Positions 23,823-55,505 of a stretch of 62,599 nucleotides of DNA are shown here, one piece after another; the first letter of the stretch is position 1, and each line of letters begins with the position of its first letter. The position numbers were made by a program, and so were the translations under genes. This DNA comes from Rhodocyclaceae bacterium. Its GTDB lineage: Bacteria > Pseudomonadota > Gammaproteobacteria > Burkholderiales > Rhodocyclaceae. The stretch covers positions 1-62,599 of the forward strand of contig JAIEOJ010000004.1 of the NCBI GenBank assembly GCA_019750575.1, given 5' to 3'. Below the pieces are notes generated by a model, which saw only the letters and a program-made list of their open reading frames with translations, did no database searches and was not told the DNA's origin.

Positions 23823-23853
23823 CCAATCGCCTGCCAATATCCCTTACTGACTC

Positions 23854-24943: not shown

Positions 24944-24978
24944 GGCGACATGCTCCGCCGCGCGCCTGTCTCCCGGCC

Positions 24979-24992: not shown

Positions 24993-25045
24993 GTTAAAGA
25001 TGTATTTTGGGTGCAAGAATTGATGCGTAGTTTCAGGAGGACGCC

Positions 25046-37093: not shown

Positions 37094-37126
37094 ACAGGGG
37101 CCGACCCTTGCTGTGGATTCCGGCAT
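37094..37126. repeat. Left terminal inverted repeat of the copper/redox island
   Basis: ACAGGGGCCGACCCTTGCTGTGGATTCCGGCAT. The reverse complement of 55214..55247 is ACAGGGGCCGACCCGCAAGTGTGGAATCCGGCAT. The outer 14 nt are identical and the inner block matches at 13/14. Confidence 0.65.
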
Positions 37127-37134
37127 TTATTGAG

Positions 37135-37168
37135 CAGTAGTTCCGGCATAAAAATGCCGGAACTACTG
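37135..37168. repeat. Perfect 15-bp-arm palindrome CAGTAGTTCCGGCAT-AAAA-ATGCCGGAACTACTG built from two inverted copies of the subterminal motif
   Basis: Read directly from the sequence. Further motif copies lie at 37118..37126, 37195..37203 (TTCCGGTAA) and 37226..37234 (TTCCGGCAA). Confidence 0.7.
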
Positions 37169-37244
37169 GGTTTCTCGAATTTCTGGCAGTGCATTTCCGG
37201 TAATTCATAAGCGATAAGACTGACTTTCCGGCAATTAATGCGAA

Positions 37245-38084
37245 CTAGTCGCAAGAGAGAGGCAATTGGCCGTGGCAACAGCTACTGATTTTGAAGAATG
37301 GGTCTCCTACAGTGCTAGATTCGAAGTGCGGGCAAGGTTTGTCTTTAAGGAAGGCTAGCCGATTGCTCTCCCACGTTACTCCTCGATTCCCATCGTACTC
37401 AATCATGGGAGTAATCGGGAGCATCCTATTCCAGGGCAGCAGGAGGGAAATCGCTTGGCCAACAGCGGTGGATGCCAAAACACCATTTGGCCAGATAACC
37501 TGAGGCCGCCCACCAGCGGCACCATACTTTTGATGCTCCAAGGCAAGTCGTTCATCCGTGATGAGGCCCAAGCATCTCAGGCAGAGACCGCCAGGTAACG
37601 ACGTAATTACCTGGCCTGTGATGCCGTACCCATTCACTCCTTTATGCACATCCATCCCAATATCGATATAGGGCACTAAGAAGCGGCGGCAAAACCGTTC
37701 AAGTTCATCGCGGACTTCATAGCCGTCTACGCACCCCATTACGATGTCGCAATTTCTCAGGGTCAAGCCAAAGTTTTGCCAAGGACCCTCGGCGATAACG
37801 ACGTTAACTTTCGGGTTAATGAATTGGATGAGCCGCTGAAGTACCTCAGTTTTTTTTCTCTCAGATTCGGCATCTTCTGGAGTACTACCAACCATTCGCG
37901 TCAGATTTGATTCATCGACGGTGTCAAAGTCGACTAACACGATCGTACCAACGCCAATGTGTGCGAGTTGCTGGCAAACATGCGATCCTCCCCCGCAGAG
38001 CCCGATAACAGCAATGGTTGTATCAGCGAGGTACGTTTCGCTGTGGTCACCAAGGAAGCTTTGGCGCGAATATCGTTTGCTCAT
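37245..38084 (-). CDS. ThiF/MoeB-family E1-like adenylyltransferase
   Basis: Start MSKRYSRQSFLG.., then the nucleotide loop IAVIGLCGGGSHVCQQLAHIGVG and DFDTVDESNLTR, plus CLRC and CPH Cys motifs. The ATG overlaps the stop of the JAB fragment (ATGA). Confidence 0.8.
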   Translation of the reverse strand: MSKRYSRQSFLGDHSETYLADTTIAVIGLCGGGSHVCQQLAHIGVGTIVLVDFDTVDESNLTRMVGSTPEDAESERKKTEVLQRLIQFINPKVNVVIAEGPWQNFGLTLRNCDIVMGCVDGYEVRDELERFCRRFLVPYIDIGMDVHKGVNGYGITGQVITSLPGGLCLRCLGLITDERLALEHQKYGAAGGRPQVIWPNGVLASTAVGQAISLLLPWNRMLPITPMIEYDGNRGVTWESNRLAFLKDKPCPHFESSTVGDPFFKISSCCHGQLPLSCD

Positions 38085-38365
38085 GCTATTGCCCTCACTC
38101 CAGGCATCTGTGGGCCGATCACAACACATTGTGAAATCGGTTCAGGAGGCGTTTCACCAGTCATCCAGCAAAGGCCTGCCATGCTGTCGTGGCTAAATAC
38201 AATCGCGCCGTGAGGCATTTCAGGCCTGACTTTGAAAAAGTCCGGAACAAATCGATGGCTGTGCCGCAAGTCAGTCCGACTAAATCTTGGTCGACCATTG
38301 TGCTCATGACGGTGCACATGGAACAAACCAACATTGCTACCCGTCTCTGCAGAAGGCTGGAACCA
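38081..38365 (-). pseudogene. C-terminal fragment of a JAB/MPN (JAMM-like) peptidase gene, lacking the N-terminal half
   Basis: The frame opens immediately after the stop that ends the sigma-factor region-4 frame. It contains GLFHVHRHEHNGRPRFSRTD, a JAMM-like H-x-H...S-x-x-D motif. No upstream Glu-containing segment and no good start were found. Confidence 0.4.
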
Positions 38366-38907
38366 CTACTTATCCAAGCATGAACGTAAGGCTAGACGGG
38401 CACGATAGAGTAGTACCCCACAATTGGTGAGAGTGATGCCCAATATCTGGCAGATTTCTGCCGTCTCGAATCCAAGCATTTCCCGTAACATGAAAGCAGC
38501 GTGCTGCCGCCTCATTGAGATAATAGGGACATGAATCGAGTATGGCTAAGAGAGTTTCTGTTGTTTCAGCGACTGCTCTGGCCTCCCCAAACTGCAGGCC
38601 AGTACTCTTCAATCCAGTCTCCGGATTCGTCAAAGAATGCGTCAATGCCATCAGCCTCCACGAACTGCAGGCCACTGTTACGTGAGCGGAGCATATCGAT
38701 GATCTTATTTCTCAGAATGGCAAAGAACCACGTCTTTAGACTACTGGAGCGACCACAAAAGCCATCGCGTTTCTCGTAGGCCGTAGTAAATGCCTCTTGC
38801 ACCAAATCTGCGGCGGCATAGTCGTCACGTAATTGGAGACGAGCGAAGCAAAGCATGTCGCGTCGGAGTGGCAGTAATTCTTGTACGAATTTTTCCTCGA
38901 GCGTCAT
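38366..38907 (-). pseudogene. ECF (sigma-70 family) sigma factor gene disrupted by at least two, probably three, frameshifts
   Basis: Region 2 (DLVQEAFTTAYEKRDGF...LKTWFFAILRNKIIDMLR) is in the frame of ORF 38566..38907. The linker (RPEQSLKQQKL / LLAILDSCPYYLNE) occupies other frames. Region 4 (AAFMLREMLGFETAEICQILGITLTNCGVLLYRARLALRSCLDK) is in a third frame ending at 38366. Confidence 0.65.
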
Positions 38908-38930
38908 AAGAAGTATGGGACTAGTTCGTT

Positions 38931-39695
38931 TTATCGAGGCCCTAGTACTTCAGAGATGCTCTGTTGCGGTAAGCCGCTGTACTTTTTTACGATACCGTTG
39001 CTGTCTCTTGTCACAATGCCTGGAGTACCTTGAAATCCAAGACTAGCCATCAAGATTTGGTTTTTCTCCAGTGTCTGTTGAATACTGTGGGGGATGTCCT
39101 TTGCCGGGGTGATGCCACCTTTTGCGAAATTGGTCTCGTTTTTCAATAGCGCTGCAGATCTATCTTGTGCACCAAGAATTGCCGCTGCTTTTGCAGGACT
39201 ACTTGCAGATATCACTCCCACAAGAATGTGGCGCAGCTGTACTTTTCCTGCAATAACCCAAGGACGGGCAGTCTCCCAAAAACGGTTGCAATAAGGGCAA
39301 TTGGGGTCGCTGAAGGTATAGATAACGCGTGGTGCGTCGGCTTTTCCATCAAGAATCCAGGACGCCGATTCCAACTGTGCCCAAATTTGGTCGCTCATTG
39401 GCTTTGCAACCAGCTTTTGGAGCGTTACATCGTCAATCGGTTCGCCGTTGGTACCAAGACGGGTCCCCACAATCGCTTTCCCGTCTGCGGTCACATACAC
39501 AGCAAGAGGGCGATCTCCTGCGACGCCAGCAAAAGCACGCATTCCGCCGCCAACATTAAACTCCTGAACGATGGTCAGTCCTTTGCCTTCGAGCGCATTA
39601 ATTACCGGAGGTTTGGCCGCGCTCTGCGCATAACCGAGGCCAGATGCCACCATCAGTCCACCTGCGACAATAGGTATAAGAGGAAATGGCTTCAT
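38931..39695 (-). CDS. dsbG: Periplasmic thiol:disulfide interchange protein (DsbG/DsbC type)
   Basis: Signal peptide, an N-terminal dimerisation-type domain and a thioredoxin fold with the CPYC active site (FSDPNCPYCNRFW). Confidence 0.8.
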   Translation of the reverse strand: MKPFPLIPIVAGGLMVASGLGYAQSAAKPPVINALEGKGLTIVQEFNVGGGMRAFAGVAGDRPLAVYVTADGKAIVGTRLGTNGEPIDDVTLQKLVAKPMSDQIWAQLESASWILDGKADAPRVIYTFSDPNCPYCNRFWETARPWVIAGKVQLRHILVGVISASSPAKAAAILGAQDRSAALLKNETNFAKGGITPAKDIPHSIQQTLEKNQILMASLGFQGTPGIVTRDSNGIVKKYSGLPQQSISEVLGPR

Positions 39696-39709
39696 GTGAT
39701 GCTCCTTGT

Positions 39710-41680
39710 CTAAAGCGTCGTGAGTTGGGGGTATTTCAAAAGGGGGCTATTGATATGAGACCGGCTGGCGGGACCGTCACCTGGTACCGATCCGGTTGGC
39801 AATGGTTGTGTCATGTTCAGGCGCTTCATGAATTCACTTGCGTTAATTTCCCCAACTACGCGGGCTTCTCTACGCTCTGCCCCATCCGGGCCCACAAAAA
39901 TCAGGGTGGGCGGTCCTGCGGCTCCCCAACGCCGGAGCAGCATCTGGCTATCGGTATCGTTATTGGTCACGTCCAACCGAATCACCTGCATGCCATTCAA
40001 GCGTTCCCGTACCGCGGGATCGCCAAACACGTTTCGCTCTATGACGTGGCAGCTGATGCACCAGTCGGCGTAGTAGTCGATCAGTGTCCAGCGACCTTGG
40101 TTACCTGCAGTAGCCAGAAGCATGTCCAGATCGTTCACAGTTTTGGCGTGGACGTAGGCAATTGGGTCACGGGCCTTGGATTCGGCGGGTGCCTGCAAAC
40201 GCGCCAACGGCTGGATCGGCGAGTCGGCGCCAGATGCCGCACCTACGAGCATTAATGTTGACCAGAGACTTAGCAACGCTGCGCCAAATCGCAGGCTCCA
40301 CGCCATTCGGTTTTTTACCAATAGGGCTTGTGCCCAGACAAACAGGCCAAACGCCAAGGACAAGGCCCAAGCGGCCCATAATGCAAGTGTCAATGACCCG
40401 GGCAGGAAACGCCCCAGCATCATGACTGCCATGCCCAGCATGGCGTAGCCAAAGGCGACACGCACTTTGTCCATCCAGGCGCCCGGTTTTGGAAGAATGC
40501 GAGCACCGAACACTGCGATCGCCAATAAGGGAAGGCCCATACCTAAGCCGAGCGCCAGCAATACGACCCCACCGTAGAGGGCACTGCCGGTTTGGCTGAT
40601 ATACAGCAGCGCCCCCGCCAAGGGGGCCGTCATGCACGGACCAACCAGTAGCGCAGATAGGAAGCCCATAATGGCGGCGCCGTAGATGTTGCCTCCCGGG
40701 CGTCCACGTCCCGATGATTCAAGACGATTGACCAGAGCAGATGGGAGCTGTAGTTCGAACAGGCCGAACAGCGAGCTGGCGAGAATCAAGAACAGGATTG
40801 AAAAAGAGCCGAGTAACCAAGGCGACTGCAGGGTTGCCTGGAGATTTGCGCCGGCAAGCCCGGCTGCGACACCGACCATTGAATAGGTCGCTGCCATGGC
40901 CAGTACATAGGATAGAGTGAGAGCAAAAGCACGGCGCGGTGATGCCTGGGTCCCGACGACCATTGTGGAAACGATGGGAATCATCGGCAACGTACATGGC
41001 GTAAATGCCAAAAGCAGACCAAACCCAAAGAACAGCAGCGTTCCGGACACGGGGCCAAGTGTTGCCAGACGTTGCGCAGCGGATTGGTCTTCGGCGACTT
41101 CGGTCTTGGTTGCGACCAAGCCGGTAATCGCGTCTACCGGAGGTGTCGTATGTGCCAAGGAGAGATATCGATCTGTCGATGAATCCCCGGAAATGCTGGC
41201 ATCCAATCCCTTATCCGGGACGGATGTCGCCTGTGGCGCTGCCGCCTCAAGAAGTACTATCTTGACGGCTTGCGGTGGATAGCAGATTCCCGCTTCCGCA
41301 CATCCTTGCCAATGAAGCGTTATTGGCCCAGCAACAGATGCCGAGAAACGTAGCCGCGCGACGCTGCCCTTGTAGATCTCCGTCTCACCGAAGAATTCAT
41401 CGTGCTTCTTCTGCCCTGCCGGGAGGTTAAGCGTGACGGCGTTCCCCTGCCCATCGACCAGTTTGAGGGAATGGCGATAAACATAGTAGCCGTCGGCGAT
41501 CTTGCCCTCCAACACCATCGTGTCGCCATTCTGCAAAGGCTTGCCTGGCCTGAAGACTTCCGTCGGGTCAAGAAATTCGGTGTCGCCACCCAAGACAGCA
41601 GAGCCGCCTCCTGCCAATGCGCTCCCGATAGCGGTGCAGCACAATAAAGCGGTGGCCAACCAGTTCCGATAGCGCGCCAA
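39710..41680 (-). CDS. dsbD: Protein-disulfide reductase DsbD (three-domain membrane electron transporter)
   Basis: 656 aa with a periplasmic N-domain, a central multi-TM domain containing conserved Cys (FTPCTLPMIP, VGPCMTAP) and a C-terminal thioredoxin domain (YADWCISCH). Confidence 0.85.
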   Translation of the reverse strand: MARYRNWLATALLCCTAIGSALAGGGSAVLGGDTEFLDPTEVFRPGKPLQNGDTMVLEGKIADGYYVYRHSLKLVDGQGNAVTLNLPAGQKKHDEFFGETEIYKGSVARLRFSASVAGPITLHWQGCAEAGICYPPQAVKIVLLEAAAPQATSVPDKGLDASISGDSSTDRYLSLAHTTPPVDAITGLVATKTEVAEDQSAAQRLATLGPVSGTLLFFGFGLLLAFTPCTLPMIPIVSTMVVGTQASPRRAFALTLSYVLAMAATYSMVGVAAGLAGANLQATLQSPWLLGSFSILFLILASSLFGLFELQLPSALVNRLESSGRGRPGGNIYGAAIMGFLSALLVGPCMTAPLAGALLYISQTGSALYGGVVLLALGLGMGLPLLAIAVFGARILPKPGAWMDKVRVAFGYAMLGMAVMMLGRFLPGSLTLALWAAWALSLAFGLFVWAQALLVKNRMAWSLRFGAALLSLWSTLMLVGAASGADSPIQPLARLQAPAESKARDPIAYVHAKTVNDLDMLLATAGNQGRWTLIDYYADWCISCHVIERNVFGDPAVRERLNGMQVIRLDVTNNDTDSQMLLRRWGAAGPPTLIFVGPDGAERREARVVGEINASEFMKRLNMTQPLPTGSVPGDGPASRSHINSPLLKYPQLTTL

Positions 41681-41802
41681 GGTAAATTCCTCCCAGAAAA
41701 GTTGGTCGGAATCATGGGCTCCTCGGATTAAGCGAGACTAAAGTCCCGCAATACAAATCTGTCCTAACATTGCGCCTACCTAAAGCGAAGTGGGGTCTGG
41801 AA

Positions 41803-42471
41803 ATGCGGGTACTCCTGGTGGAGGACGACGAGCTAATTGGCAATGGAATCCTGGCGGGATTGCGCCAGCATGGGATCACCGTGCATCACGTTCTGACGGC
41901 CGCCGACGCCCAGCTCGCACAAAGAGATGAAACCTTCCATGCAATGATCCTTGATCTCGGGCTGCCCGACGGTGATGGTATGGATTTGCTAAAAGTCGTT
42001 CGTGCCTTTGAACCCGACTTGCCCGTACTGATACTTTCAGCGCGAGACACGATAGATCACCGACTTACGGGCTTGCGTGGCGGTGCCGACGATTACGTGG
42101 TCAAACCGTTTGACCTGCGCGAACTGGCAGCTCGGCTGCATGCGCTGGTGAGACGCACCCAGGGCCGAGCCGCCCAGACGATCCAGGCCGGCCCGTTGCG
42201 GCTTGATCCCGACAGCGGGCTGGCGTGGTTTCACGGTATCCAACAACCACTTTCGCGGCGGGAAGTCGACCTGCTGGCGCATCTCGCCAGCTCCGACGGC
42301 CGATGGGTGTCGCCGGACGCTTTGAACCAATACCTGTATGGCTTTGGTGAAGAGGTTGGGAGCAACGCCCTCAACGTCCACATCTACAACATTCGTCGCA
42401 AGCTCGGGCCGGAATCGATAGAAACCGCGCGAGGCCTGGGCTACCGACTTGGCTGGAAACTTACTTCATGA
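41803..42471 (+). CDS. OmpR/PhoB-family response regulator (CopR/CusR-like)
   Basis: Trimmed to the ATG at 41803 (MRVLLVEDDE...). It has receiver Asp context MILDLGLPDGDG and a winged-helix C-terminus (GYRLG). Confidence 0.85.
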   Translation: MRVLLVEDDELIGNGILAGLRQHGITVHHVLTAADAQLAQRDETFHAMILDLGLPDGDGMDLLKVVRAFEPDLPVLILSARDTIDHRLTGLRGGADDYVVKPFDLRELAARLHALVRRTQGRAAQTIQAGPLRLDPDSGLAWFHGIQQPLSRREVDLLAHLASSDGRWVSPDALNQYLYGFGEEVGSNALNVHIYNIRRKLGPESIETARGLGYRLGWKLTS

Positions 42472-43829
42472 GTCTACGTCTCCGTGCGATTCTGATCGCT
42501 GGGATTTCGCTTGTTGTCCTTTGGGGGGCTGCAACCGCCTGGATGATCCGAGATGTACAAATCAAGTTCGACAGGACACTTGACGGCCGTCTTGCAATGT
42601 CTGCTCGTATGGTTGCCGGCTTGCTCGAACGATCGACGCTCTCGAAGAGCATCAGTAACGATGATTTCTCGAATGCGATCGGGGAAGGCGGAGTGGATGG
42701 GATTGCTTGCGAGATACGCTCGCTCCGCGGCGAGGTGCTGGCGAAGACGGACGACAGCCCCGACTCCGAATTCGGACACCTTGCGCCCGGCTACAGTACG
42801 CGGAAGGTCGACGGGCGTGACTGGAGAATCTATGTCTTGCGCGCTGATGGGTACCAAATAACAACTGCGGATTGCATAGATCAGCGGAATGTCCTGATCA
42901 ATGAGTTGCTATATGCGGCGGGTATTCCCTTCCTGATCGCCCTCCTGGGAGGGCTAGGGGCGCTTTGGATCGGCATCGGGCGCGGCTTCGCTCCATTGAA
43001 GGCATTGCACCAGCAACTGCATTCAATGGGGGCCGACGACACGACCCCGCTTGTCGTAAGGCAATCTCCGGCAGAACTGCACCCAGTCCTGGAAGCAATG
43101 AACGGATTGCTCAAGCGCCTTGCGCAGGCACTTTCGAGCCAACGTGCATTCACCGACGCGGCTGCGCATGAGCTTAGAACTCCGCTGACGGTCATCGATA
43201 CACACCTGCAGGTGGTTCGAATGACGGAGGGAAAAGACGCTGAATCGTCGCTTAGCCAGGCTGAGGAAGGTGTTAAGCGCTTACGGCACACCCTCGACCA
43301 AATGATGATGCTGGCTCAAGCTGAAAGCGCAACAGATAGCTCCAATGAATGTCCTTCCGTGCTGACGGCGGTTCATAACGTACTTGATCGGGTGAGCAAC
43401 TCCGGATCACGGCGACTAAGTCTGGCTGTCGAAGGGGCCGAGGCGGGGACGCCGATTCCTAGCGCTATGCTGGAAACCGCTGTACGCAATATCGTAGATA
43501 ACGCGGTTCGCTATTCTCCAGAGGATACGCCTGTCGAGGTCAAGCTGTTCTTCGACCATCGCATGCAACGGGGTCGAATCGACATTTGCGATCAGGGGCC
43601 GGGCTTAAATATGGAACAGGTGTCGAAAGTAGGAAGGCGGTTCTGGCGTGGCGACCAAGGAAGGCAACAGAAAGATGGGGCTGGACTTGGCATTTCGATC
43701 GTCCGCACCATCCTTGAACGGTTCGGAGGCTCACTGGACTTTAGCCCTCGGCAAGATGGTGGCCTGACCGTCTCGCTTAACTTTCCCTTGAACGGCGGGA
43801 CGCCGGAAGCCGGCAGGGGTGATTTATGA
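42468..43829 (+). CDS. Sensor histidine kinase (two TM segments, periplasmic sensor domain)
   Basis: H-box FTDAAAHELRTPLT, N-box NAVRYSP and G-boxes DQGPGL / GLGISIV. It overlaps the regulator stop by 4 nt. Confidence 0.85.
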   Translation: MSLRLRAILIAGISLVVLWGAATAWMIRDVQIKFDRTLDGRLAMSARMVAGLLERSTLSKSISNDDFSNAIGEGGVDGIACEIRSLRGEVLAKTDDSPDSEFGHLAPGYSTRKVDGRDWRIYVLRADGYQITTADCIDQRNVLINELLYAAGIPFLIALLGGLGALWIGIGRGFAPLKALHQQLHSMGADDTTPLVVRQSPAELHPVLEAMNGLLKRLAQALSSQRAFTDAAAHELRTPLTVIDTHLQVVRMTEGKDAESSLSQAEEGVKRLRHTLDQMMMLAQAESATDSSNECPSVLTAVHNVLDRVSNSGSRRLSLAVEGAEAGTPIPSAMLETAVRNIVDNAVRYSPEDTPVEVKLFFDHRMQRGRIDICDQGPGLNMEQVSKVGRRFWRGDQGRQQKDGAGLGISIVRTILERFGGSLDFSPRQDGGLTVSLNFPLNGGTPEAGRGDL

Positions 43830-44197
43830 AAAGTAAAGATCTTCTAGTGCTGGGCGTGATCATCGTCTTTGTCAGCACTGCTCAGCTAGGGATGACAATG
43901 TACAGGGATCACACCAATGAGCGGTATGCCGACGACGTGGTAAAAAATGCTCGAACAGGCGATATCGTCATGCTGTCGTCAGAGGGATGTCCATACTGTG
44001 CCAAGGCTCGTGCGTGGTTCGCTAAGCACAATGTTCCAATTGAGGAGTGCTTTATTGAGAATGATCCGGTTTGCGCGGATAAATTCAGTCGCTCTATGGC
44101 GTACGGTACCCCCGTCATCATCGTCAAGGGAAAACCCATCACAGGATTTGACGTTGAGGCAGTTAGTCAGGTTCTGAGTTCTGGAGACAAATCCTAA
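43826..44197 (+). CDS. Membrane-anchored glutaredoxin-fold protein (CPYC)
   Basis: N-terminal TM helix (LLVLGVIIVFVSTAQL), then IVMLSSEGCPYCAKARAWF and GTPVIIVKGKPITGF. It overlaps the kinase stop by 4 nt. Confidence 0.7.
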   Translation: MKSKDLLVLGVIIVFVSTAQLGMTMYRDHTNERYADDVVKNARTGDIVMLSSEGCPYCAKARAWFAKHNVPIEECFIENDPVCADKFSRSMAYGTPVIIVKGKPITGFDVEAVSQVLSSGDKS

Positions 44198-44235
44198 TAC
44201 CAACCAAGCAACTTTTCTCTAGAGTTCATGTGCCC

Positions 44236-44275
44236 GGAAAACATAGCCGTGCCATTGCGACACGGCTATGTTTCC
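44236..44275. terminator. Long hairpin between convergent genes (glutaredoxin-like gene and cusA)
   Basis: GGAAAACATAGCCGTG-N9-CACGGCTATGTTTCC (one bulged A). Confidence 0.65.
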
Positions 44276-44278
44276 AGT

Positions 44279-47200: not shown

Positions 47201-47404
47201 CGGATAGGTGACCTGGTTCTCGACAATCTGCGGGGCTTGGCCGGGATAGCTGGTGCGAATGATGACCTGCACGTCCGAGAGGTCGGGCAAGGCATCGATG
47301 GGGGTCGTCTTGATCGACCAGATGCCCCAGGCCGTAATGAAGACGGTCGCCAGCAGCACCAGAAAGCGGTTCGCCACCGACCAGCGTATGAGCTTGGCGA
47401 TCAT
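44279..47404 (-). CDS. cusA: Heavy-metal (Cu/Ag-type) RND efflux pump, CusA/CzcA family
   Basis: 1041 aa starting [23 protein letters not shown]... It has 12-TM RND architecture and Met-rich periplasmic segments. Confidence 0.9.
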
Positions 47405-48876
47405 TGGGCTTTTCCTTCCAGTTTCTGCAGACGCTCAACGACTAGGCCATCGTCACCCTCACGCACGCCGACCCGAACGCGGTCGCCGGCCTTGAAGTCT
47501 TTGACCAGTTCCGGATTCGCTAGGGGGAACGGCATGGTCATGCCGGGCATGGACAGGGTTTTGAAAGGCCCGTGCGCCAGGGTGATTTCCTTGTCGCTGA
47601 CGTCGACGATGCGCGCATCGGCTTCATGCAGCGACACAGCCGCAGGCATAGTTGCCGCCGTCTTGGCGGTGATGCCCTTGAGGCTGGCTTCGGAGTCGAT
47701 GAGGAATTGGCCGCTGGCGACGACTTGCTGCCCCTCAGACAGACCGCTCTTGATGATGGTCCGGTCGCCAACATCGCCGCCCAGCACCACTTCCACCGGC
47801 TCATATCGACCTCCTTCCGTGGCAACCATGACCAAGGAGCGTTTGCCCGTACGAATCACTGCCTCGGTCGGTACGGATAGCGCGTTCTCCTTCGACGCAT
47901 TGCCGAGTGAAACCTGGGCCGACTGACCCGGATGCAACAGGCCCTTGGTATTGGGCAGTTCGACCCGGACGCGCAAGCTACGGGAGACATCGTTCAACAC
48001 CGGGACGATGGCCGCCACCTTGCCGGTTACCGGCGTGTCATTGCCTGCCACCATGGCAGTCGCTTTTGCACCGGGCTGAACTTGCGCGGCCAATGCCTCG
48101 GGCACGGCGACCTCAAGCCAAACCGTAGACAGGCCATTGATGCGGACCAGGGCTTGCCCAGCCATCAACGTCATGCCATTGCGTACGTCGAGGCTCTGAA
48201 TAACCCCGCTGATCGGCGCAGTGACGGTAAAGCGCGCCCTTGGCTGGCCGGACGACTCGACCTCACGGATCATGCCGTCGCTCATGCCGACCGAACGCAG
48301 GCGATCACGCGCAGCGGCGAGCAATGCCGGATCGCCGGCCGATTTGAGCGCCAGGAACTCATGCTGGGCCGAAAGCCAGTCCGGCACCTGGACGTCGACC
48401 AGCGCCTGCCCGGCCTTGACCACATCGCCGGGCGCCAGAGAGGCCACACGCTCGACGAAGCTAGCCGCCCGGCTCTGCACAATCGCCACATCCCGCTCAT
48501 TGAAGCCAATCACGCCGGTCGCATCGACCTGCGATGCCAGCGAAATGCTCGTCACCGGCGCCAGGCGCATGCCCAGGCTTTGGGTGATGGACGGGTCGAT
48601 CTTGACCCCGGCCGCCTCGCCATCGCCATCCGCATACTTGGGCACTAGCGCCATGTCCATGAAGGGCGACTGCCCAGGCTTGTCGAATTTCTGCTGCGGA
48701 TACATGGGGTCGTACCAGTACAGCACCTTGCCTTGGCCGCTCGCCTGCCCAGGCTCGCCCATCTCCATGGCGGCCATCGAGCGTTGCGACCACCACCAGC
48801 CGCCTGCCGCGCCGATAGCCAACAGTGCCGTGCCGACGGCGGCAGAAATCAGCGTTTGTTTGTTCATGCGTTTCAT
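47401..48876 (-). CDS. cusB: RND periplasmic adaptor CusB with a C-terminal CusF-like metallochaperone domain
   Basis: It has an N-terminal [27 protein letters not shown] heavy-metal-binding motif and a membrane-fusion core. The C-terminal ~90 aa ([39 protein letters not shown]) parallels the CusF at 50602..50934. Confidence 0.85.
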
Positions 48877-50147
48877 TGTTGTTCTCCAGAAACTTCGCCA
48901 TAGGCGTAGTGCAGCCGTGCCGCCATCTGCTGGCGTTCGCCTTCAACGGCGATGGCCTTGAGTTCGGTATCGATGCGTTCCCGACGAGCTGCGACAACGT
49001 CGGCCAACATGCCTTTGCCGCCGCGCCAGGCAGCGGTGGTAAGACGAACCTTTTCTTCGGCGAGGGGCAACAGAATGTCGCGTTGGCGCTTTGAGGCATT
49101 GCTCAAGCGCTGGTAGTCTGCCCAGTCCACATCCAGCATGGCGATGTGCTCGCGCAAGGTGGCTTCACGTTCCGCATCCAGGGCACTACGTTCGGCCTGA
49201 CGCGCCGCAATCTGCGGGCCCTGGCGCGATCCGGAGAACACCGGAAGATCGAGGCGGAGCTGCACGGAAACCATGTCGCCGAATTCCGGGGCGCGCTTTT
49301 GGTAGGCCACGTCGACACCCCAGTCAGGCCGCTTGCCGGCTTTGGCCTCGGCGAGTTCGGCATCCAGGACCTTGGTTCTGGGCTCGAACAAGGCGAGTTC
49401 GGGATGCTGATGCAGAGTGTGCACCAATCGATCGCGACTGAGATTCCAGTCCGGAGGGGCGCCGGCCAGCGGCAGTTCGCCATCTGAACCCAGCCAGCGC
49501 TTCAAGGCGGCCACGGCCTGTTGGCGTCTCGCGGCCAGTTCATCGCGGCGCTCTTCGATCATCGCCGCTTCCTGACGCGGCATGACGGCATCCGCCGCCG
49601 AGCCCTTGCCGCCAGCGAGCTGGGCGCGAACGGCATTGGCAAGGAGCGAATTCTCCGCAACCAGGGCATCGATACGCGCAAGCTGCTGCTCGACGGTGTT
49701 GCGGGCGATCCATGCAGTTGCGGTTTCACGCAGGACGGTGAGTCGCGTCACTCGCGTCTGCGCTTCGGCGAGTTCCACCCGACCGTTGGCGGCAGCGATA
49801 CGCGCATCGCGCTTTGCGCCATTGGGGATGTCCTGACTGATGCCGATGCGCTGCATCGTCATGGAGTCTTTGTTCAGGCTGTAACGATCCTGACCCTGGA
49901 TGGGCAGGTTGTCGATGCCGAGCGCGAGCTTCGGGTCTGGCAATTCGCCGGCCGGTGTGACGGAATAGCGCGCCGCATCGACTTGCGCCGTATTGGCGCG
50001 CAAGGCCGGCGTGTCGCTGACTGCCGTTGTCAGCGCCTTCTGGAAGGTCAAGGATTGGGCAAAGGTGGTCGATGACAATCCGATTAAAGAGGCGAATATC
50101 AGTGTTCGCGAAAGACTCGGTGTCTTTGCACAAATATGGGAAATCAT
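48873..50147 (-). CDS. cusC: Outer-membrane efflux protein (TolC/CusC family)
   Basis: 424 aa with a signal peptide and OEP repeat structure. It overlaps the cusB start by 4 nt. Confidence 0.85.
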   Translation of the reverse strand: MISHICAKTPSLSRTLIFASLIGLSSTTFAQSLTFQKALTTAVSDTPALRANTAQVDAARYSVTPAGELPDPKLALGIDNLPIQGQDRYSLNKDSMTMQRIGISQDIPNGAKRDARIAAANGRVELAEAQTRVTRLTVLRETATAWIARNTVEQQLARIDALVAENSLLANAVRAQLAGGKGSAADAVMPRQEAAMIEERRDELAARRQQAVAALKRWLGSDGELPLAGAPPDWNLSRDRLVHTLHQHPELALFEPRTKVLDAELAEAKAGKRPDWGVDVAYQKRAPEFGDMVSVQLRLDLPVFSGSRQGPQIAARQAERSALDAEREATLREHIAMLDVDWADYQRLSNASKRQRDILLPLAEEKVRLTTAAWRGGKGMLADVVAARRERIDTELKAIAVEGERQQMAARLHYAYGEVSGEQQ

Positions 50148-50233
50148 GTCGGGCTCCAGTTACTGTCTGGCACTCACAAGGTTTAGGGATAGAAAGGACA
50201 AACGGCAGAAGCCGTCTGTCCTCTCTCCTCAAC

Positions 50234-50512
50234 TTAGAGCTTCGGATTCAGCGTTCCTTTTTCGGAAAGCGTCTTCCAGATGGCGTCGTTTTTCATGACG
50301 TACGTCATTCCGTCTTTGCCTTGCATGGGGATGTTGTCGCGCATCAGGACACGTTTTCCGGCTGCATCCAGGTGAACCATTTCGCCGTTTTTCTTCACGG
50401 TCAAGGTGCCGCCGTCTGTCAGTTGAGCGACCTCACCGGACTTCATAGGCATGTCTGCTGCAAACACGGTGAGAGGGAGAGCCAGCATCAGAGAAAGAAT
50501 GGTGTTACGCAT
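50234..50512 (-). CDS. Small Met-rich periplasmic protein, CopK-like
   Basis: Signal peptide MRNTILSLMLALPLTVFA. The mature sequence ...GTLTVKKNGEMVHLDAAGKRVLMRDNIPMQGKDGMTYVMKNDAIWKTL parallels my memory of Cupriavidus CopK. Confidence 0.45.
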   Translation of the reverse strand: MRNTILSLMLALPLTVFAADMPMKSGEVAQLTDGGTLTVKKNGEMVHLDAAGKRVLMRDNIPMQGKDGMTYVMKNDAIWKTLSEKGTLNPKL

Positions 50513-50601
50513 AGTGGTATTCCTTTAAATAAACAAATAGATTGAATGCGCAGCCCGACACCGCTTGATGTAGCGGTTGCCTTTGGGTGCGTGGTTATTA
50601 A

Positions 50602-50934
50602 CTACTTCGCTAGTTCGAGCTTGGTGACCGTGATGGCGCCATTCACCATGTCTGCGGTGAAGTTGACCTGATCGCCGACCTTGATCTGTTTCAAGAGGGC
50701 GGGATCCTTGACACTAAAGCTCATGGTCATGCCAGGCATGCCAAGGTTCTTGAGTGGGCCATGCTTGATCGTGACGAGTTTCGCTCCGGTATCAATCTTC
50801 TTGATTTCACCGTGGGTCATATCGGTAGATTCCGGCATGGTTTTCATGTCGTCATGCGTCTTGTTGCTTTGAGCATGGACGAAAGTAGCCGGCAGGAGAG
50901 CCAGTGCGGCCACCAGTGGGATGGAGGTTTTCAT
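50602..50934 (-). CDS. cusF: Periplasmic Cu(I)/Ag(I) chaperone CusF
   Basis: Signal peptide, then GEIKKIDTGAKLVTIKHGPLKNLGMPGMTMSFSVKDPALLKQIKVGDQVNF. Confidence 0.8.
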   Translation of the reverse strand: MKTSIPLVAALALLPATFVHAQSNKTHDDMKTMPESTDMTHGEIKKIDTGAKLVTIKHGPLKNLGMPGMTMSFSVKDPALLKQIKVGDQVNFTADMVNGAITVTKLELAK

Positions 50935-51058
50935 GTGATTCCTTCGAATTCCAATTGGCTTACGGGCGTCCGAACAGAAAATGTTCGCAAAAGAACCCGC
51001 ATAGCCAAAGCGATGCGTGAATCCGTGCCAAAGGCACGGAGTTATCGGCCGCTAGGAA

Positions 51059-51430
51059 TTACGCGCGTGCTGGCGGACGCCAGACGCTAGATGCGTCGAA
51101 GGAGCGTACGGAATGTACGAGAGAGGGGTATTGCGTAGTTTGCTCCATCGGGAAATGGAGCGAAGGGGCTGTACTTACAGGGTATTGCGCGGAGACCGGG
51201 CAATCTTGTCCCGTCTTGCACATCTTGCCGGTCTTTGCAGCGGTACTGGCATCATTGCAACAGTCGTGATCGCCCATTGCCTGTTGGTGCGTGTCCGCCG
51301 CCTGCATTTGCGCCATACCACCAGACTGCTCCATCGGGCATGGTGCCGAGAGCGTGTGTACGCTAGCAATGCCCTGGAGGGGAATCGCTAAACACAACAG
51401 CATCAGCAAGAAAAGGCGGAACTTACGCAT
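51059..51430 (-). CDS. Secreted Cys/Met/His-containing hypothetical protein (possibly CzcI/DUF2946-like)
   Basis: Signal peptide MRKFRLFLLMLLCLAIPLQGIAS, with motifs CPMEQSGGMAQMQ, HDCCND and CKTGQDCP. Confidence 0.55.
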   Translation of the reverse strand: MRKFRLFLLMLLCLAIPLQGIASVHTLSAPCPMEQSGGMAQMQAADTHQQAMGDHDCCNDASTAAKTGKMCKTGQDCPVSAQYPVSTAPSLHFPMEQTTQYPSLVHSVRSFDASSVWRPPARA

Positions 51431-51598
51431 GGGCGAATTCTAGAATAAATTCCCGGTATCAGTAAAGCCGGGACCAACGTTAGATGCTTCTGGGCGGAAC
51501 AGTTCCTTGACTGATCTGAATTTTGACCAGAGCAGCCGAGGAGGTACATCAGCCATTTACGGGATTGCCGTATGGCCGATAGGTCGTGATTGAAACCC

Positions 51599-52234
51599 TC
51601 AACCCTCATCGCTATCAGTCACAACACCTATATTCCGAACTTCACCAACGGGGGGAATCCTGGGGCGGCGGCGAGGTCGAGCAAATAAGGTTGGTGTCAG
51701 AGTATGTTCGATCGGGACCCATACCCAGACGAACAGGGCTGGCAGCGGAATAGCTGTCGAAGGATCCGGCATACCGCTGGTAGGCGTATTTCCGCAAAAG
51801 TCGGCCAACCACGCGGAAGCCTCCTGAATGTGCGCGGTGCATGAATCGATACTGCGCCCATCAAGGCAAGCGGGATCGAGGAGTGGATTATTTGCGGACA
51901 GGGAGCCATCCGTGCGCTCGCAATGCACGATCAGCGAAGAGAGAGACGAGGTGCTATGTGCCGATCTCTCCGTCTTGTCGATACAGAGATGCTTTTTCCC
52001 ATACGCGATCAGTTGCTGAAGCATCGCTTCGACGTTTGGTCGGCGTGCCATGCTCATAACCGACTCTGCTTGTCTTTCGGTACCGGCTACGCTGGGTGAC
52101 GCGAGGCGAGGCTCGCTCTGCGTCTTCAACAAGGATGGGAAGCTCATGGCGACACTTGTCGTAAGCGGGCTATCGACCCGGGAAACGCGTGGCGAAACAT
52201 AGGATACCGGCGATAACGAGCCAATAGTATTCAT
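51599..52234 (-). CDS. Hypothetical protein (211 aa, six Cys, no signal peptide recognised)
   Basis: Strong AGGAGG RBS 6 nt upstream of the ATG. No recognisable family. Confidence 0.55.
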   Translation of the reverse strand: MNTIGSLSPVSYVSPRVSRVDSPLTTSVAMSFPSLLKTQSEPRLASPSVAGTERQAESVMSMARRPNVEAMLQQLIAYGKKHLCIDKTERSAHSTSSLSSLIVHCERTDGSLSANNPLLDPACLDGRSIDSCTAHIQEASAWLADFCGNTPTSGMPDPSTAIPLPALFVWVWVPIEHTLTPTLFARPRRRPRIPPVGEVRNIGVVTDSDEG

Positions 52235-52267
52235 ATGAGCCTCCTACTGAAAACCGTGAGCTAAAAG

Positions 52268-52546
52268 CTATTGGACTCCGTCTGGAGAGTTTGCGGCGAT
52301 CTTTCCCAGGCCAGTCCAGAGTTGTTCACAAGTCGGGTGTTTGCCGTTGTCGGTGCCATTGCACTCGGACATGAATTCGTCCCCGATATCTCCCAGGACA
52401 TCCGCTTCAGCCAAGTGCGTGGTACTCACTTGGGTCTGGATCTGGGGGTGAGCTTCATGCTTAGCCGGGAAACTCTTGGAAATGACAGCCCCACTGCTGA
52501 GGGCAAAAATAAGCGCTGCGGTACCGATGGAGAGAGTGCGTTTCAT
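52268..52546 (-). CDS. Small secreted hypothetical protein
   Basis: Signal peptide MKRTLSIGTAALIFALSSGAV. Two Cys (SECNG...HPTCEQLW). It lies between the redoxin and the 211-aa orphan on the same strand. Confidence 0.5.
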   Translation of the reverse strand: MKRTLSIGTAALIFALSSGAVISKSFPAKHEAHPQIQTQVSTTHLAEADVLGDIGDEFMSECNGTDNGKHPTCEQLWTGLGKIAANSPDGVQ

Positions 52547-52576
52547 TTTGAGCTTTCTGTATGCCTGTGTAATGGA

Positions 52577-53206
52577 TTAACCGTTGCTCCCGCGCCCATC
52601 TATTGGGGCGGAGGCGGCGTCTTTTGTATTTGCTTCACGCAACAATTGCTGGATGACCTGTTCGGACTCGACGTAGGCGCCTTCACCGAAGTGGTGGTAG
52701 CGAATCCGGCCGCGCGCATCGACAAAGTAGTGGGCAGGCCAGTAGCGGTTTTGGAACGAACGCCAGATGGTGTAGTTGTTGTCGAGCACGACCGGATGCT
52801 TAATGCCGAGATCACTGATGGCCTTCTTCACATTGCCTAACTCGCCCTCGAAGGGGAATTCCGGGGTATGAATGCCGACGACGACCAGTCCTTGCTTACT
52901 GTACTTTTCGGCCCATGCCTTGACGTAAGGCAGGGTATGCAGGCAATTGATGCAGGAGTAGGTCCAGAACTCGACCAGCACGACTTTGCCGCGTAGAGAT
53001 TCAGCTGTGATCGGGGAAGAGTTGAGCCACTGTATGCCCCCATCAAAAGAAGGTATGGGGCCCTCGTCAGGTAGCCGGGAAAAAGGCCCGGACGGAGCAG
53101 GCGCCTTGGCCTCTTGCCCAAACGAAAAGGTGGACAGGCCCAAGGCCAAGGTTGTTATCAGCAAGGTCACGAGGGATCTCGTACGAGCATGGGACGCAAT
53201 CGACAT
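52577..53206 (-). CDS. Thioredoxin-fold redoxin (DipZ C-terminal / TlpA-like), exported
   Basis: N-terminal hydrophobic anchor, then VVLVEFWTYSCINCLHTLPYV (CxxC) and YWPAHYFVDARGRIRYHHFGEG. Confidence 0.75.
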   Translation of the reverse strand: MSIASHARTRSLVTLLITTLALGLSTFSFGQEAKAPAPSGPFSRLPDEGPIPSFDGGIQWLNSSPITAESLRGKVVLVEFWTYSCINCLHTLPYVKAWAEKYSKQGLVVVGIHTPEFPFEGELGNVKKAISDLGIKHPVVLDNNYTIWRSFQNRYWPAHYFVDARGRIRYHHFGEGAYVESEQVIQQLLREANTKDAASAPIDGRGSNG

Positions 53207-53209
53207 GGC

Positions 53210-53652
53210 GTACCGATGCGCTGCTCACACTACTTTCCCATCTACCAACCGATATCGAAAAGCTTCTGATGGAAGGCGAAGGGCTTGGAGAGTTTGCCTT
53301 GGAGCTTTTCTTGCAGAGCTTGGGTTGCATTGGAACGTTAAAAGGAATTCTGACCTCTGCATTGGTGCGAGCCTTGAGAGGTAATAAGCCAATGACGCGG
53401 GGTTTAGTGCGTCAGTGTTTTTACCCATCTGCGCAGCTCGATAGATTGGAGCAAGAATTAACTGAAGGCATGAAGGCAATCAAGAAGTTCATGAGCAGTG
53501 AGCAATTGGCCTACCGAGCTGAAGCGCGTGGTTCGGATACGCCACCGAGGTCGAACCGGTCTGATTTGAAGCCCGGCGAAAGCAGGCCGTCGCATAGGCG
53601 GCAGGCAACTTCAAGCTGGGATCAAAAGGATTCAGTGCATGGTGATGAATAG
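53210..53652 (+). pseudogene. 3' remnant of a tniB/tnsC-like AAA+ transposition ATPase gene
   Basis: Only the last ~90 residues of the frame look TniB-like (..LELFLQSLGCIGTLKGILTSALVRALRGNKPMTRGLVRQCFYPS). No Walker motifs are present. Further upstream the frame runs antisense into the redoxin gene. Confidence 0.45.
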
Positions 53653-54994
53653 AGCCCCATTGCTGTTTCCTCCTGCCGTCCTGCAGTCAGGTGCTCAACG
53701 GGAGGGATTGAATTCACTCTTCAAAAGATTGTGTGGCTTTAACTATCTTTCGGTGAACGCCGTACTCGGGCAACTGGTTATGCCTATCACAGGTGGAGAT
53801 GGCAGACGACTAACCCGTATGGGATATCCAGGAGAGCTTATTAATCGTGGAATGGAGCCTTCTTCGAGAATCATTTCTGCCATCGCAAGGCTGACGGCCT
53901 GCCCACTGAATTTGGAGGCGCTTACGTTTGGAGAGCTTGCAGGCATACCTGGAAGTAGCGCCATCGGTATGGCCATGTACAGGAAATGGTGCCCCCGGTG
54001 CTTTGAGGACGATTTAGCGACAGAAGCTGGCGCCTATGAACGATTAATTTGGTCACTCTCATCTGTTGAAACGTGCCACACCCATGAGTGTTTGTTGGTG
54101 AACAAATGCCGGCACTGTGGGAAAGGGCCTTTCCGGATGCTGCTTGGCCGGGATCTGCCTGGTTTCTGTCCCGCGTGCCAAGCCTGGCTAGGAGACGAAT
54201 CCGTCGACCGCGTTTCAAAGCAAGACCCTAATGGGAGATTCCTAATCTGGGTAGCAAGCTCATACGCGACATTGTTGAACGATCCGTTAGATGATTTACC
54301 GGATGTTAGGGAGAGCTTCAGTCGAATTTTGTACGCACTTCTTGATCACCGCTTTGAGGGCGTCCAGGTTCATTTGGCAAATGCACTGCAGCGGAATCGA
54401 TCCGTTATCAATACATGGTTGCATAAGAGGGCGTCTCCGAGCTGGATGGTACTGATGGAGCTGAGTTACATGTTCCAGTTGCCAGTTGAAGAAATCCTGA
54501 GGGGCAATATAGATTGCGTCGAATTTTCTTCAGAGCAGGTACCACCCCCAACCACTTTGGTTCGGCTGTCTAATCCCAGAAAAAAGCCGAAGAAGCGGGA
54601 TCCAGATGAGCTGAGTCGGTTTCTTTTGCGCGTCGAAAATGGTGAGCTTCCTGGGGTGACCACAATGAGGGAAGTTGCCGTCAGGCTTGGTCTTGATCCG
54701 AGAGAACTCTCTCGTCTGTTGCCAGTTGAGTCTGCCCGGCTGTCGCAAATCTTGAAAGGAAGGCGGCAAGCTGCAGGGCAATTGAAGAGGCAGGAATATC
54801 GAGCATCTTTGCAGCGGCATGTTCCGATGGTGGTTCGACGGCTCCTGGATGACGGCATCACAGTTCACCGAAGATCGGTGGATCAGGCGTTGGCGAAGTC
54901 TGGAATCAAATCTCGGAGGAGTGAGGCCCGCTATGTAAAAGAGCTGGTAAGCGAGGCTATGAGCTTTTTCGACAGCCTAGAAGCGTCTTCCTAA
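53639..54994 (+). CDS. tniQ: TniQ-family transposition target-selection protein (intact)
   Basis: 451 aa with the N-terminal TniQ pattern (PLLFPPAVLQSGAQREGLNSLFKRLCGFNYLS) and a Cys4-type segment (WCPRCFEDD...CHTHECLLVNKCRHCGK...CPAC). It overlaps the tniB-remnant stop. Confidence 0.7.
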   Translation: MVMNRAPLLFPPAVLQSGAQREGLNSLFKRLCGFNYLSVNAVLGQLVMPITGGDGRRLTRMGYPGELINRGMEPSSRIISAIARLTACPLNLEALTFGELAGIPGSSAIGMAMYRKWCPRCFEDDLATEAGAYERLIWSLSSVETCHTHECLLVNKCRHCGKGPFRMLLGRDLPGFCPACQAWLGDESVDRVSKQDPNGRFLIWVASSYATLLNDPLDDLPDVRESFSRILYALLDHRFEGVQVHLANALQRNRSVINTWLHKRASPSWMVLMELSYMFQLPVEEILRGNIDCVEFSSEQVPPPTTLVRLSNPRKKPKKRDPDELSRFLLRVENGELPGVTTMREVAVRLGLDPRELSRLLPVESARLSQILKGRRQAAGQLKRQEYRASLQRHVPMVVRRLLDDGITVHRRSVDQALAKSGIKSRRSEARYVKELVSEAMSFFDSLEASS

Positions 54995-55213
54995 GCGATC
55001 TCTTAGGGGAGGCGTGAGCAGCAGCCCAAACAATTTTTGAAAGCCTCTTGGCCCCTATTAGACCCATGGGATGAAGGGTCTCAAGACAGGCGGCGTTTGA
55101 CTCTACCACCCGAGAAATCAGATGGTAGAGCCTTATGCTGTTGTTTTGAAGCGGATTCCGGCAATTTCTTGCTGTGTCGGAATTCCGGCATAAAGTGCTC
55201 AAACGAGCAATTT

Positions 55214-55247
55214 ATGCCGGATTCCACACTTGCGGGTCGGCCCCTGT
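55214..55247. repeat. Right terminal inverted repeat of the copper/redox island
   Basis: ATGCCGGATTCCACACTTGCGGGTCGGCCCCTGT. With the same-orientation copy at about 55169..55191 it forms a long imperfect palindrome. Further motif copies are at 55156..55164 and 55183..55191. Confidence 0.65.
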
Positions 55248-55256
55248 CATCGTGTC

Positions 55257-55333
55257 TGGCGCGCCCGAGACGATTCGAACGTCCGACCCTTGCCTTCGGA
55301 GGGCAATACTCTATCCAGCTGAGCTACGGGCGC
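55257..55333 (-). tRNA. tRNA-Arg (anticodon CCG)
   Basis: The reverse complement folds as a cloverleaf: acceptor GCGCCCG/CGGGCGC, anticodon stem TTGCC/GGCAA with loop CTCCGAA, T-loop TTCGAAT, and an encoded 3' CCA. Confidence 0.9.
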
Positions 55334-55505
55334 GAAGGCCCGAAGAATAGCGGTTTTGTGGCATGGAGTCCAATCTGCTTTGATCGGGATCAAGCGGGAC
55401 CCCCTTTATTCAGGCAGTTTATGTGGAAGCCGATATAATCTTTTCGTCTCAAGCGCTGCCCAAATATCCATTCGAACCCCAACCGCTTTCAAGGAACGTA
55501 CCCCC

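Follow-up and report, generated by a model that had tools for sequence, protein, structure and literature searches.

A copper and thiol-redox island beside a tRNA-Arg(CCG) gene in a Rhodocyclaceae genome is very probably a defective Tn7-like transposon

How did an 18-kb block of copper and thiol-redox genes come to lie between a P-type ATPase gene and a tRNA-Arg(CCG) gene? The question is raised by contig JAIEOJ010000004.1 of a Rhodocyclaceae bacterium (assembly GCA_019750575.1), of which positions 1 to 62,599 of the forward strand were analysed and are referred to here as the window. An earlier inspection of the letters, the sequence-only reading, had placed the block between the stop codon of the ATPase gene (37076) and the tRNA gene, and this was confirmed, the tRNA-Arg(CCG) gene being located at 55257..55333 on the minus strand (ARAGORN, Rfam). 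It had also described transposon-like ends of a family that it did not recognise. The island is identified here, with high confidence, as a defective Tn7-like transposon of the clade that has a fused TnsAB transposase and homes to tRNA genes by means of the target selector TnsD, and tRNA-Arg(CCG) is its target.

The element spans 37112-55228 (18,117 bp), and its termini, as read from the window sequence, are TGTGGATTCCGGCAT and ATGCCGGATTCCACA, that is TGT…ACA; its end sequence is given as TGTGGAWTCCGGCAT. Both termini are directly abutted by a 5-bp repeat, CTTGC, the identical copies of which (37107..37111 and 55229..55233) constitute the target-site duplication that the sequence-only reading had failed to find. 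On the left, the stop codon TGA (37076) of the ATPase gene is followed by …ATGC ACAGGGGCCGACC CTTGC and then TGTGGATTCCGGCAT; on the right, ATGCCGGATTCCACA is followed by CTTGC, GGGTCGGCCCCTGT, CATCGTGTC and TGGCGCGCCC, the last segment being the tRNA-Arg(CCG) gene. The limits drawn earlier, 37094 and 55247, lie 18-19 nt too far outward on each side, and the 9 nt previously counted to the tRNA gene span to the arm of a host hairpin, the transposon end itself being 28 nt from the tRNA 3' end.

This hairpin accounts for the outer part of what had been taken for the transposon ends. The flanks at 37094..37107 (left arm, ACAGGGGCCGACCC) and 55234..55247 (right arm, GGGTCGGCCCCTGT) lie outside the element, are 14 nt each and are mutually complementary, and when the insert and one CTTGC are taken out they form ACAGGGGCCGACCC-TTGC-GGGTCGGCCCCTGT, a perfect 14-bp stem with a TTGC loop. 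The rebuilt hairpin folds at -44.9 kcal/mol (z = -4.4), and none of 200 shuffled sequences folded equally well. As inferred from the two flanks, the uninterrupted site before insertion would have been the contiguous ACAGGGGCCGACCCTTGCGGGTCGGCCCCTGT, 9 bp past the tRNA 3' end. Inverted copies of ACAGGGGCCGACCC…GTGGA(T/A)TCCGGCAT are indeed present at the edges of the block, but their outer 14 nt are the host hairpin arms and not transposon DNA. The 33-bp inverted repeat proposed earlier as the element end is a composite of the 14-nt host arm, 4 loop nt and 15 nt of true transposon terminus, so that over half of it is host hairpin plus duplication; the 4 loop nt supply all of the duplication except its first base, which is also the final base of the arm. 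Because the insertion lies in the hairpin loop, the split arms outside the element mimic a longer terminal inverted repeat.

That the outer arms are a dispersed repetitive extragenic palindromic sequence, which the sequence-only reading had named as fatal to its claim, was rejected, as they have only two copies in the whole window. The 24-nt core of the hairpin, GGGCCGACCCTTGCGGGTCGGCCC, is intact in five unrelated metagenome contigs (L092-L096), each with different flanks, where it typically follows the end of a gene and once directly adjoins a tRNA gene (L095). Because the core recurs intact in five unrelated loci, the hairpin is read as a generic terminator-like stem-loop.

Inside the termini both ends carry arrays of a short motif, and the earlier count of five sites on the left and three on the right was borne out by motif and palindrome counts. 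TTCCGGCAW occurs nine times in the window against 1.6 expected, with six of the nine copies in the two end regions. The tRNA-distal end (37112..37249, plus strand) starts with the terminal TGTGGATTCCGGCAT and holds four exact copies and one with a single mismatch, including sites at 37141 (+), 37154 (-), 37195 (+, one mismatch) and 37226 (+); two (T)TCCGGCA(T/A) sites make up a perfect palindrome with 15-nt arms at 37135-37168. The tRNA-proximal end (55150..55228, minus strand) holds two exact copies and a terminal copy with one mismatch. Its terminal TGTGGAATCCGGCAT is read on the minus strand (55214-55228), opposite-strand copies lie further inward at 55183 and 55156, and the 55183 (+) site forms a 17-nt palindrome (94 %) with the terminal minus-strand site. 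The two termini, TGTGGA(T/A)TCCGGCAT, are identical at 18 of the first 21 positions. The number of sites is asymmetric, five distal against three tRNA-proximal, with both orientations in use, and the proximal layout is alike in all of the relatives described below. The TCCGGCA(T/A) arrays are, by analogy, putative TnsAB binding sites, and their reading as transposase-binding arrays of a DDE-type transposon is supported. No match to the 151-bp distal end was obtained by BLASTN against plasmids. Two near-matches to the terminus, TGTGGATGCCGGCAT and TGTGCCTGCCGGCAT, are located at 7272-7286 and 7394-7408, within a LexA-like S24 peptidase gene (7054-7704, minus strand) and around the palindrome ATGCCGGCAT; these were considered as second ends and judged to be chance matches.

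As had been observed before, the only transposition genes in the element are a tniB 3' stump and an intact tniQ. No transposase homologue was found anywhere in the window, no recombinase, resolvase, cas gene or CRISPR array was detected among its open reading frames (ORFs) and repeats (Pfam, NCBIfam, PADLOC, repeat scans), and no RNA family other than tRNA was found in the element region (Rfam). The stump, at 53212..53652 (+), represents residues 254-399 of the 399 of a tniB-type AAA+ protein, TnsC (tblastn of TnsC from contig L001, 99.3 % identity), and is held in an ORF at 53152-53652 (+, 166 aa) with no Pfam match. The intact gene, at 53639..54994 (+), encodes TnsD, a TniQ-family target selector of 451 aa (Pfam TniQ at residues 20-153, E = 9e-12) that matches the PADLOC model TniQ_IB. 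Over residues 114-386 it also matches PDB 8v32_J (E = 8.5e-18), the TnsD of PmcCAST, a type I-B2 CRISPR-associated transposon (CAST) from a Peltigera membranacea cyanobiont (PDB 9bw1, 8v32, 8fcu).

The part that is missing from the window was seen on a sister contig. A word-indexed search of 5.8 billion clusters returned a single close relative of the window TniQ-family protein (P0001, 99 % identity), which is encoded on L001, a 3.4-kb contig of a public read-set assembly. Positions 1344-3391 of L001 correspond to window 53211-55257 at 99.7 % identity over 2,048 bp, with the same end, hairpin and tRNA flank. Positions 1-1343 are absent from the window and encode an intact 399-aa TniB/AAA_22 protein (TnsC), upstream of which are the C-terminal 196 aa of a protein that weakly matches a Mu-transposase C-terminal signature (the TnsAB C-terminus). 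A second contig, L089, follows the window cargo up to 53213 and then diverges, a third, L090, crosses the window junction at 100 % identity, and the parental sequences L001 and L089 share TAC at 53211-53213. The internal deletion junction (53211..53213) is in this way bracketed by L001 and L089, spanned by L090 and marked by a 3-bp microhomology. Among public read sets, SRR12900989 contains the intact sister copy, SRR30217688 the cargo side without the deletion, and SRR15085116 and SRR15085126 the deleted copy.

Because L001 keeps an intact tnsC and the transposase 3' end at the same site, the simplest reading is that the window copy is a deletion derivative, from which tnsAB, codons 1-253 of tnsC and some DNA further upstream have been lost. 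This supports the earlier suggestion of a non-autonomous or decayed DDE-type transposon. The window copy is not capable of autonomous movement because tnsAB and the 5' two-thirds of tnsC are deleted; as both ends and tnsD are kept, it could move only if a related element gave TnsAB and TnsC in trans.

The family to which these genes belong was established from relatives of the L001 TnsC, a search with which returned 33 clusters (38-100 % identity), nine of which were followed to their contigs. The nine contig sets share a conserved module of tnsAB (895-910 aa), tnsC (~390 aa) and tnsD (~455 aa), with the AAA+ gene between the transposase and selector genes and often with one or two helix-turn-helix regulators. 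The module reads toward one element end, on the tnsD side, and the cargo lies upstream of tnsAB. Of the end copies beside intact modules that the sequence-only reading had proposed to look for, the proximal one is seen in relatives that carry tnsAB-tnsC-tnsD. The ~900-aa protein of a relative has a weak rve domain at about residues 541-611 and aligns with PDB 9bw1_M (898 aa) at E = 7e-96 (residues 8-873 to 2-871). Chain M of 9bw1 is the PmcCAST TnsAB (preprint), a natural TnsA-TnsB fusion with a PD-(D/E)XK nuclease at 73-172 and a DDE domain at 509-634 (PMC11915506). Cyanobacterial fusions annotated 'TnsA endonuclease N-terminal domain' were found by tblastn against plasmids, at 27-29 % identity over 88-97 % of the length. 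The full-length L001 TnsC matches PmcCAST TnsC (E = 2e-31), and PmcCAST is the best solved-structure match for all three core proteins of the lineage. From these structure matches, the window 'tniB' and 'tniQ' are taken to be the tnsC and tnsD of a TnsAB-fusion Tn7-like element. The single-polypeptide TnsAB holds for the lineage, the window copy having lost the gene entirely and L001 keeping the C-terminal 196 aa.

A CAST of type I-B2 or I-D was rejected for the window copy, as the element has no cas domains, no CRISPR-type or tandem repeats and no second small TniQ; among the genes called in the relatives' loci, no cas-family or resolvase-family domain was recorded. A relative on a Caballeronia chromid (H56) has a tnsAB-tnsC-tniQ module with no tRNA nearby and was set aside as an uninformative member of a different subfamily.

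The same retained genes bear TniB and TniQ Pfam signatures and the cargo includes a metal-related two-component system, as in Tn6048, which could suggest a decayed member of the Tn5053/Tn402 family (TniA-TniB-TniQ-TniR, a res-hunter) or a Tn6048-type metal transposon. A 5-bp duplication is also typical of the Tn5053/Tn402 family. However, TniA is about 560 aa in size, whereas the transposase of the present lineage is a TnsA-TnsB fusion of ~900 aa that aligns end to end with PmcCAST TnsAB. The resolvase and res site are likewise a point of difference, neither being present in the window copy and no resolvase-family gene being called in the relatives' loci, and insertion is at a set distance from tRNA genes and not at a res site. 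The end has no DNA similarity to any plasmid record. The cargo also differs: Tn6048 holds mmfA, B, C1, D, C2, R and S, two-component system included (PMC4914505), without any Dsb, ThiF or Cus genes, so that the likeness to Tn6048 drawn by the sequence-only reading does not hold. That reading had listed Tn7-like, Tn5053/Tn402-like and Mu-like transposons as having such ends; the first of these was correct and the Tn5053/Tn402 analogy fails. A Tn5053- or Tn6048-type origin is accordingly held to be highly improbable, and a Tn7-like element of the TnsAB-fusion clade is preferred.

The position of the tRNA gene agrees with this identification. In relatives whose contigs reach past tnsD, the element ends …(A/T)TGCCGGA(A/T)(T/G)(C/G)CACA and the tRNA 3' end lies 27-31 bp further on; this holds for nine distinct relatives, and in eight of them (L082, L083, L085, L088, L097, L099, L102, L110) the distance is 27-29 bp. 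The window copy is 28 bp from its tRNA-Arg(CCG), and in L001 the distance is 29 bp, the tRNA itself being off the contig and the flank being the same as that of the window Arg(CCG) site. Arg(CCG) is also the neighbour of L082 (27 bp), L083 / L084 (28 bp, tRNA seen on L083 only), L097 / L098 (29 bp) and L103 (about 31 bp, with an ambiguous CA run). An Arg-type 3' end follows at 27 bp in L110 and at 28 bp in L102, both contigs stopping inside the tRNA, and an Arg-type 3' fragment follows at 29 bp in L099-L101. The neighbour of L085 is Leu(TAA) at 28 bp, and that of L088 a tRNA-like 3' fragment, also at 28 bp. The tnsD-side end faces the tRNA in every case. The spacers are unrelated among the relatives, with the hairpin occurring only in the window and its sister L001, and the tRNA-Arg(CCG) gene sequences differ between hosts. 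One element (identical TnsC, P0011) was found beside two different spacers, which indicates separate insertion events.

Most TnsAB-fusion elements reside at tRNA attachment sites recognised by TnsD (PMC9881144, Hsieh & Peters, NAR 2023). The clade inserts 29±1 bp past the tRNA, with a strict orientation bias and a duplication of 5 bp, and its transposase-binding sites occur in both orientations within one end (PMC9881144); CyCAST homes 30-33 nt downstream of tRNA-Leu (PMC10293859). No description of tRNA-Arg as a Tn7-like attachment site was found in the literature searched, the principle itself being established. The adjacency to tRNA-Arg is a programmed attachment site and not incidental; the gene is its determinant, and the retained TnsD is predicted, from the behaviour of its relatives, to read it.

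Three further observations concern the attachment sites. The TnsD of L085 (11160-12524, at tRNA-Leu(TAA)) and that of L082 (2769-4166, at tRNA-Arg(CCG)) are 60 % identical, and this pair may be a natural case of recent target switching. Beside the L099 end, at about 12623-12680 (also in L100 and L101), is a tRNA-Arg fragment whose 3' 28 nt are identical to those of the window tRNA but in which ARAGORN calls no gene, so that the attachment tRNA appears to be truncated or rearranged there. In the window (55356-55946) and in the host genomes of two distant relatives, L082 (4448-5026) and L097 (12816-13325), the gene after tRNA-Arg(CCG) encodes a cytochrome c, which suggests that the host DNA on the tRNA side belongs to a conserved core-genome neighbourhood.

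A location on the 3' side of a tRNA gene and a lower G+C content are also classic features of genomic islands inserted by a tyrosine or serine recombinase, in which case att or regulatory sequences would account for the repeats, and the tniQ and tniB fragments would be unrelated debris. Such an island should have an integrase, yet no integrase or recombinase domain is encoded among the ORFs. The 24-mer at the tRNA 3' end occurs only once in the window even when 3 mismatches are allowed, and the junction lies outside the tRNA gene, which it does not overlap. The element has the hallmarks of a transposon in its TGT/ACA termini, its 5-bp duplication and its repeat arrays, and the same end directly follows tnsD in every relative. 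An integrase-borne island is thus barely credible as an explanation, and the TnsD-directed transposon is retained.

Whether the copy is dead is a separate matter. It could instead be a deletion derivative that an intact sibling is at present moving in trans, in which case the window and L001 would represent independent insertions, and its intact ends and tnsD would permit this. The junction reads CCACA|CTTGC in the window (55228/55229) and CCACA|CCTTGC in L001 (3361/3362), with one extra C. A 1-nt offset was also seen in a near-identical pair of relatives, between CCACA|TCTCC in L082 (4223/4224) and CCACA|GTCTCC in L083/L084 (L083 7445/7446). Such offsets are as expected for independent insertions 1 bp apart, but they could also be indels or assembly artefacts. 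The literature describes multi-copy degraded elements of the clade that have lost tnsAB and tnsC by deletion but keep tnsD and both ends, and proposes that they are mobilised in trans (PMC11837452). The window copy shares this pattern of decay; those elements, however, target CRISPR repeats and have almost no cargo, whereas the window copy lies at a tRNA gene and carries 16 kb. Against ongoing mobilisation, the window contains neither TnsAB nor any further copy of the ends, and where the deleted arrangement turned up again (L090) its context was the same. Current movement in trans is therefore considered unlikely, and a defective copy is the preferred description.

Several points weigh against this identification or limit it. 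The hairpin reconstruction is drawn from the two flanks because no true empty site, with ATPase gene, hairpin and tRNA but without the insert, was found: an exact look-up of the ATPase protein gave nothing, and a scan of genome contigs with the same protein returned only relatives of <=68 % identity from unrelated taxa and no conspecific junction, while the five metagenome matches to the hairpin core were all at unrelated loci. No distal end was found within 10 kb upstream of tnsC in the family contigs fetched, and because no relative provided one, the two-ended architecture and the duplication are seen in the window copy only. The extra C makes the length and position of the duplication uncertain in L001. 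Identity to the cyanobacterial and PmcCAST proteins is low, at ~27-29 % for TnsAB, and TnsD is covered only in part. Support for the two-ended structure and the duplication nevertheless comes from the hairpin reconstruction and from the anatomy and spacing of the proximal end, which are conserved across the family.

A course of events can be proposed that starts from what was established directly, namely the termini, the duplication, the rebuilt hairpin, the deletion junction, the homologies and the fixed tRNA distance in relatives; the contacts between proteins and DNA, the sequence of steps and any movement in trans are inferred. TnsD would bind the tRNA-Arg(CCG) gene and nucleate an AAA+ ring of TnsC on the downstream DNA. 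TnsC would then recruit a paired-end complex of TnsAB assembled on the TCCGGCA(T/A) arrays. Staggered 5-bp joining about 28 bp past the tRNA 3' end, in a single orientation with the tnsD-side end toward the tRNA, would produce the CTTGC duplication, and the point of insertion would be the loop of the host hairpin that lies 9 bp after the tRNA. A later illegitimate deletion across the 3-bp microhomology would have removed tnsAB and the 5' two-thirds of tnsC.

Among characterised systems, PmcCAST resembles the lineage in its fused TnsAB (~898 aa), its TnsC and TnsD, and its TnsD-type homing at a fixed distance downstream of a tRNA gene. It differs in that the present element lacks Cascade genes, a second small TniQ and a CRISPR array, that the hosts are proteobacterial, that the tRNA is Arg(CCG) and not Val or Leu, and that protein identity is low; the window copy also has no TnsAB and is without most of TnsC. 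The cyanobacterial tRNA-targeting TnsAB-fusion elements, including the type I-D McCAST (PMC9881144), share the 5-bp duplication, the strict orientation and binding sites in both orientations, with insertion at 29±1 bp compared with 27-29 bp here. Their TnsAB is only about 27-29 % identical, and McCAST has TAC/GTA ends where those of the present element are TGT/ACA. They also differ in cargo, which consists of metal and redox genes in the window and defence systems in the proteobacterial relatives.

The cargo of the window copy occupies about 16 kb (37245..53206), and its genes were assigned with Pfam and NCBIfam. From the distal end, it begins on the minus strand with a ThiF-family E1-like enzyme (37245-38129), an extracytoplasmic function (ECF) sigma factor in two pieces (38566-38907 and about 38366-38515), DsbG (38931-39695; NCBIfam equivalog, E = 2e-91) and DsbD (39710-41680). 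An OmpR-type response regulator (41770-42471), a sensor kinase (42468-43829) and a glutaredoxin (43826-44197) follow on the plus strand. The remainder is again on the minus strand: CusA (44279-47404), CusB (47401-48876), CusC (48873-50147), CopK (50234-50512), CusF (50602-50934), a CopL-like protein with a weak match (51059-51430), two ORFs with no family match (51599-52234 and 52268-52546) and a TlpA/ResA-like thiol-disulfide oxidoreductase (52577-53206). By these family assignments the cargo is a mosaic package predicted to serve copper/silver efflux and periplasmic thiol-disulfide redox functions. The ECF sigma gene (38366-38907, minus strand) is divided between a piece of 113 aa with region 2 and a piece of 49 aa with region 4, with the same split in a 100 % identical contig (L091), and it is probably a pseudogene.

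The G+C profile agreed with the lower-G+C block described earlier, apart from one host-like segment. G+C falls from 0.66 to 0.50-0.59 (about 0.52) exactly at the left border and returns to 0.64 after the tRNA, and the cusCBA block (44279-50147) has 0.62-0.64 within an element that elsewhere has 0.50-0.58. Because cusCBA is host-like in this respect, the mosaic cargo is suggested to have come from at least two sources. The copper-carrying Tn7-like transposon of Pseudomonas syringae is assumed to have classical Tn7 architecture and a different attachment site. Copper-resistance cargo is what it has in common with the window copy, as far as the description cited allows (Aprile et al. 2021, as cited in PMC8649781), the comparison being by citation only and not by sequence.

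The relatives (L085, L088, L099, L103, L107) carry mostly defence genes, as opposed to the metal and redox genes of the window. These include a 1277-aa reverse transcriptase (RT)-domain protein with HNH, type I restriction-modification, pPIWI_RE with BrxR, PRTase-CE with RT, and a 1716-aa DEAD/UvrD helicase. Elsewhere in the window, at about 10000-25000, is a second block of low G+C (0.49-0.56) with metabolic and transport genes: a GntR regulator, an aminotransferase, TctC, TctA, an FAD/FeS oxidase, a D-serine-dehydratase-like protein, an aldehyde dehydrogenase and Ldh/Mdh. No mobility gene was found among the large ORFs of this block.

Taken further, the observations permit a joint reading that is put forward only tentatively and is more doubtful than not: that the window element and about 30 related TnsC clusters belong to a proteobacterial sister lineage of the I-B2/I-D CAST machinery that is CRISPR-less and so far undescribed, with tRNA-Arg(CCG) as its site and at least one recent switch to tRNA-Leu(TAA) between TnsD proteins of 60 % identity, that the deleted copy is still moved in trans, and that the 1-nt offsets are traces of independent insertions.

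Current understanding is not overturned by these results, as the element is ordinary for a known clade. What had looked like an orphan island with odd ends becomes a mobile element whose borders are exact and whose mode of insertion is known, its boundary, duplication and family now corrected. The locus also illustrates a general trap, in that insertion into the loop of a host hairpin doubles the apparent terminal inverted repeat and hides the target duplication. Until now, knowledge of the TnsAB-fusion tRNA-homing clade has come mainly from cyanobacteria and CASTs, whereas the CRISPR-free relatives described here are on contigs labelled Pseudomonadota or with betaproteobacterial-type flanks. 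Their safe site is tRNA-Arg(CCG), and their cargo consists of copper/silver efflux and periplasmic thiol-redox genes or of defence systems. Changes in TnsD specificity could be studied with the help of the few natural TnsD proteins seen here whose tRNA targets differ.

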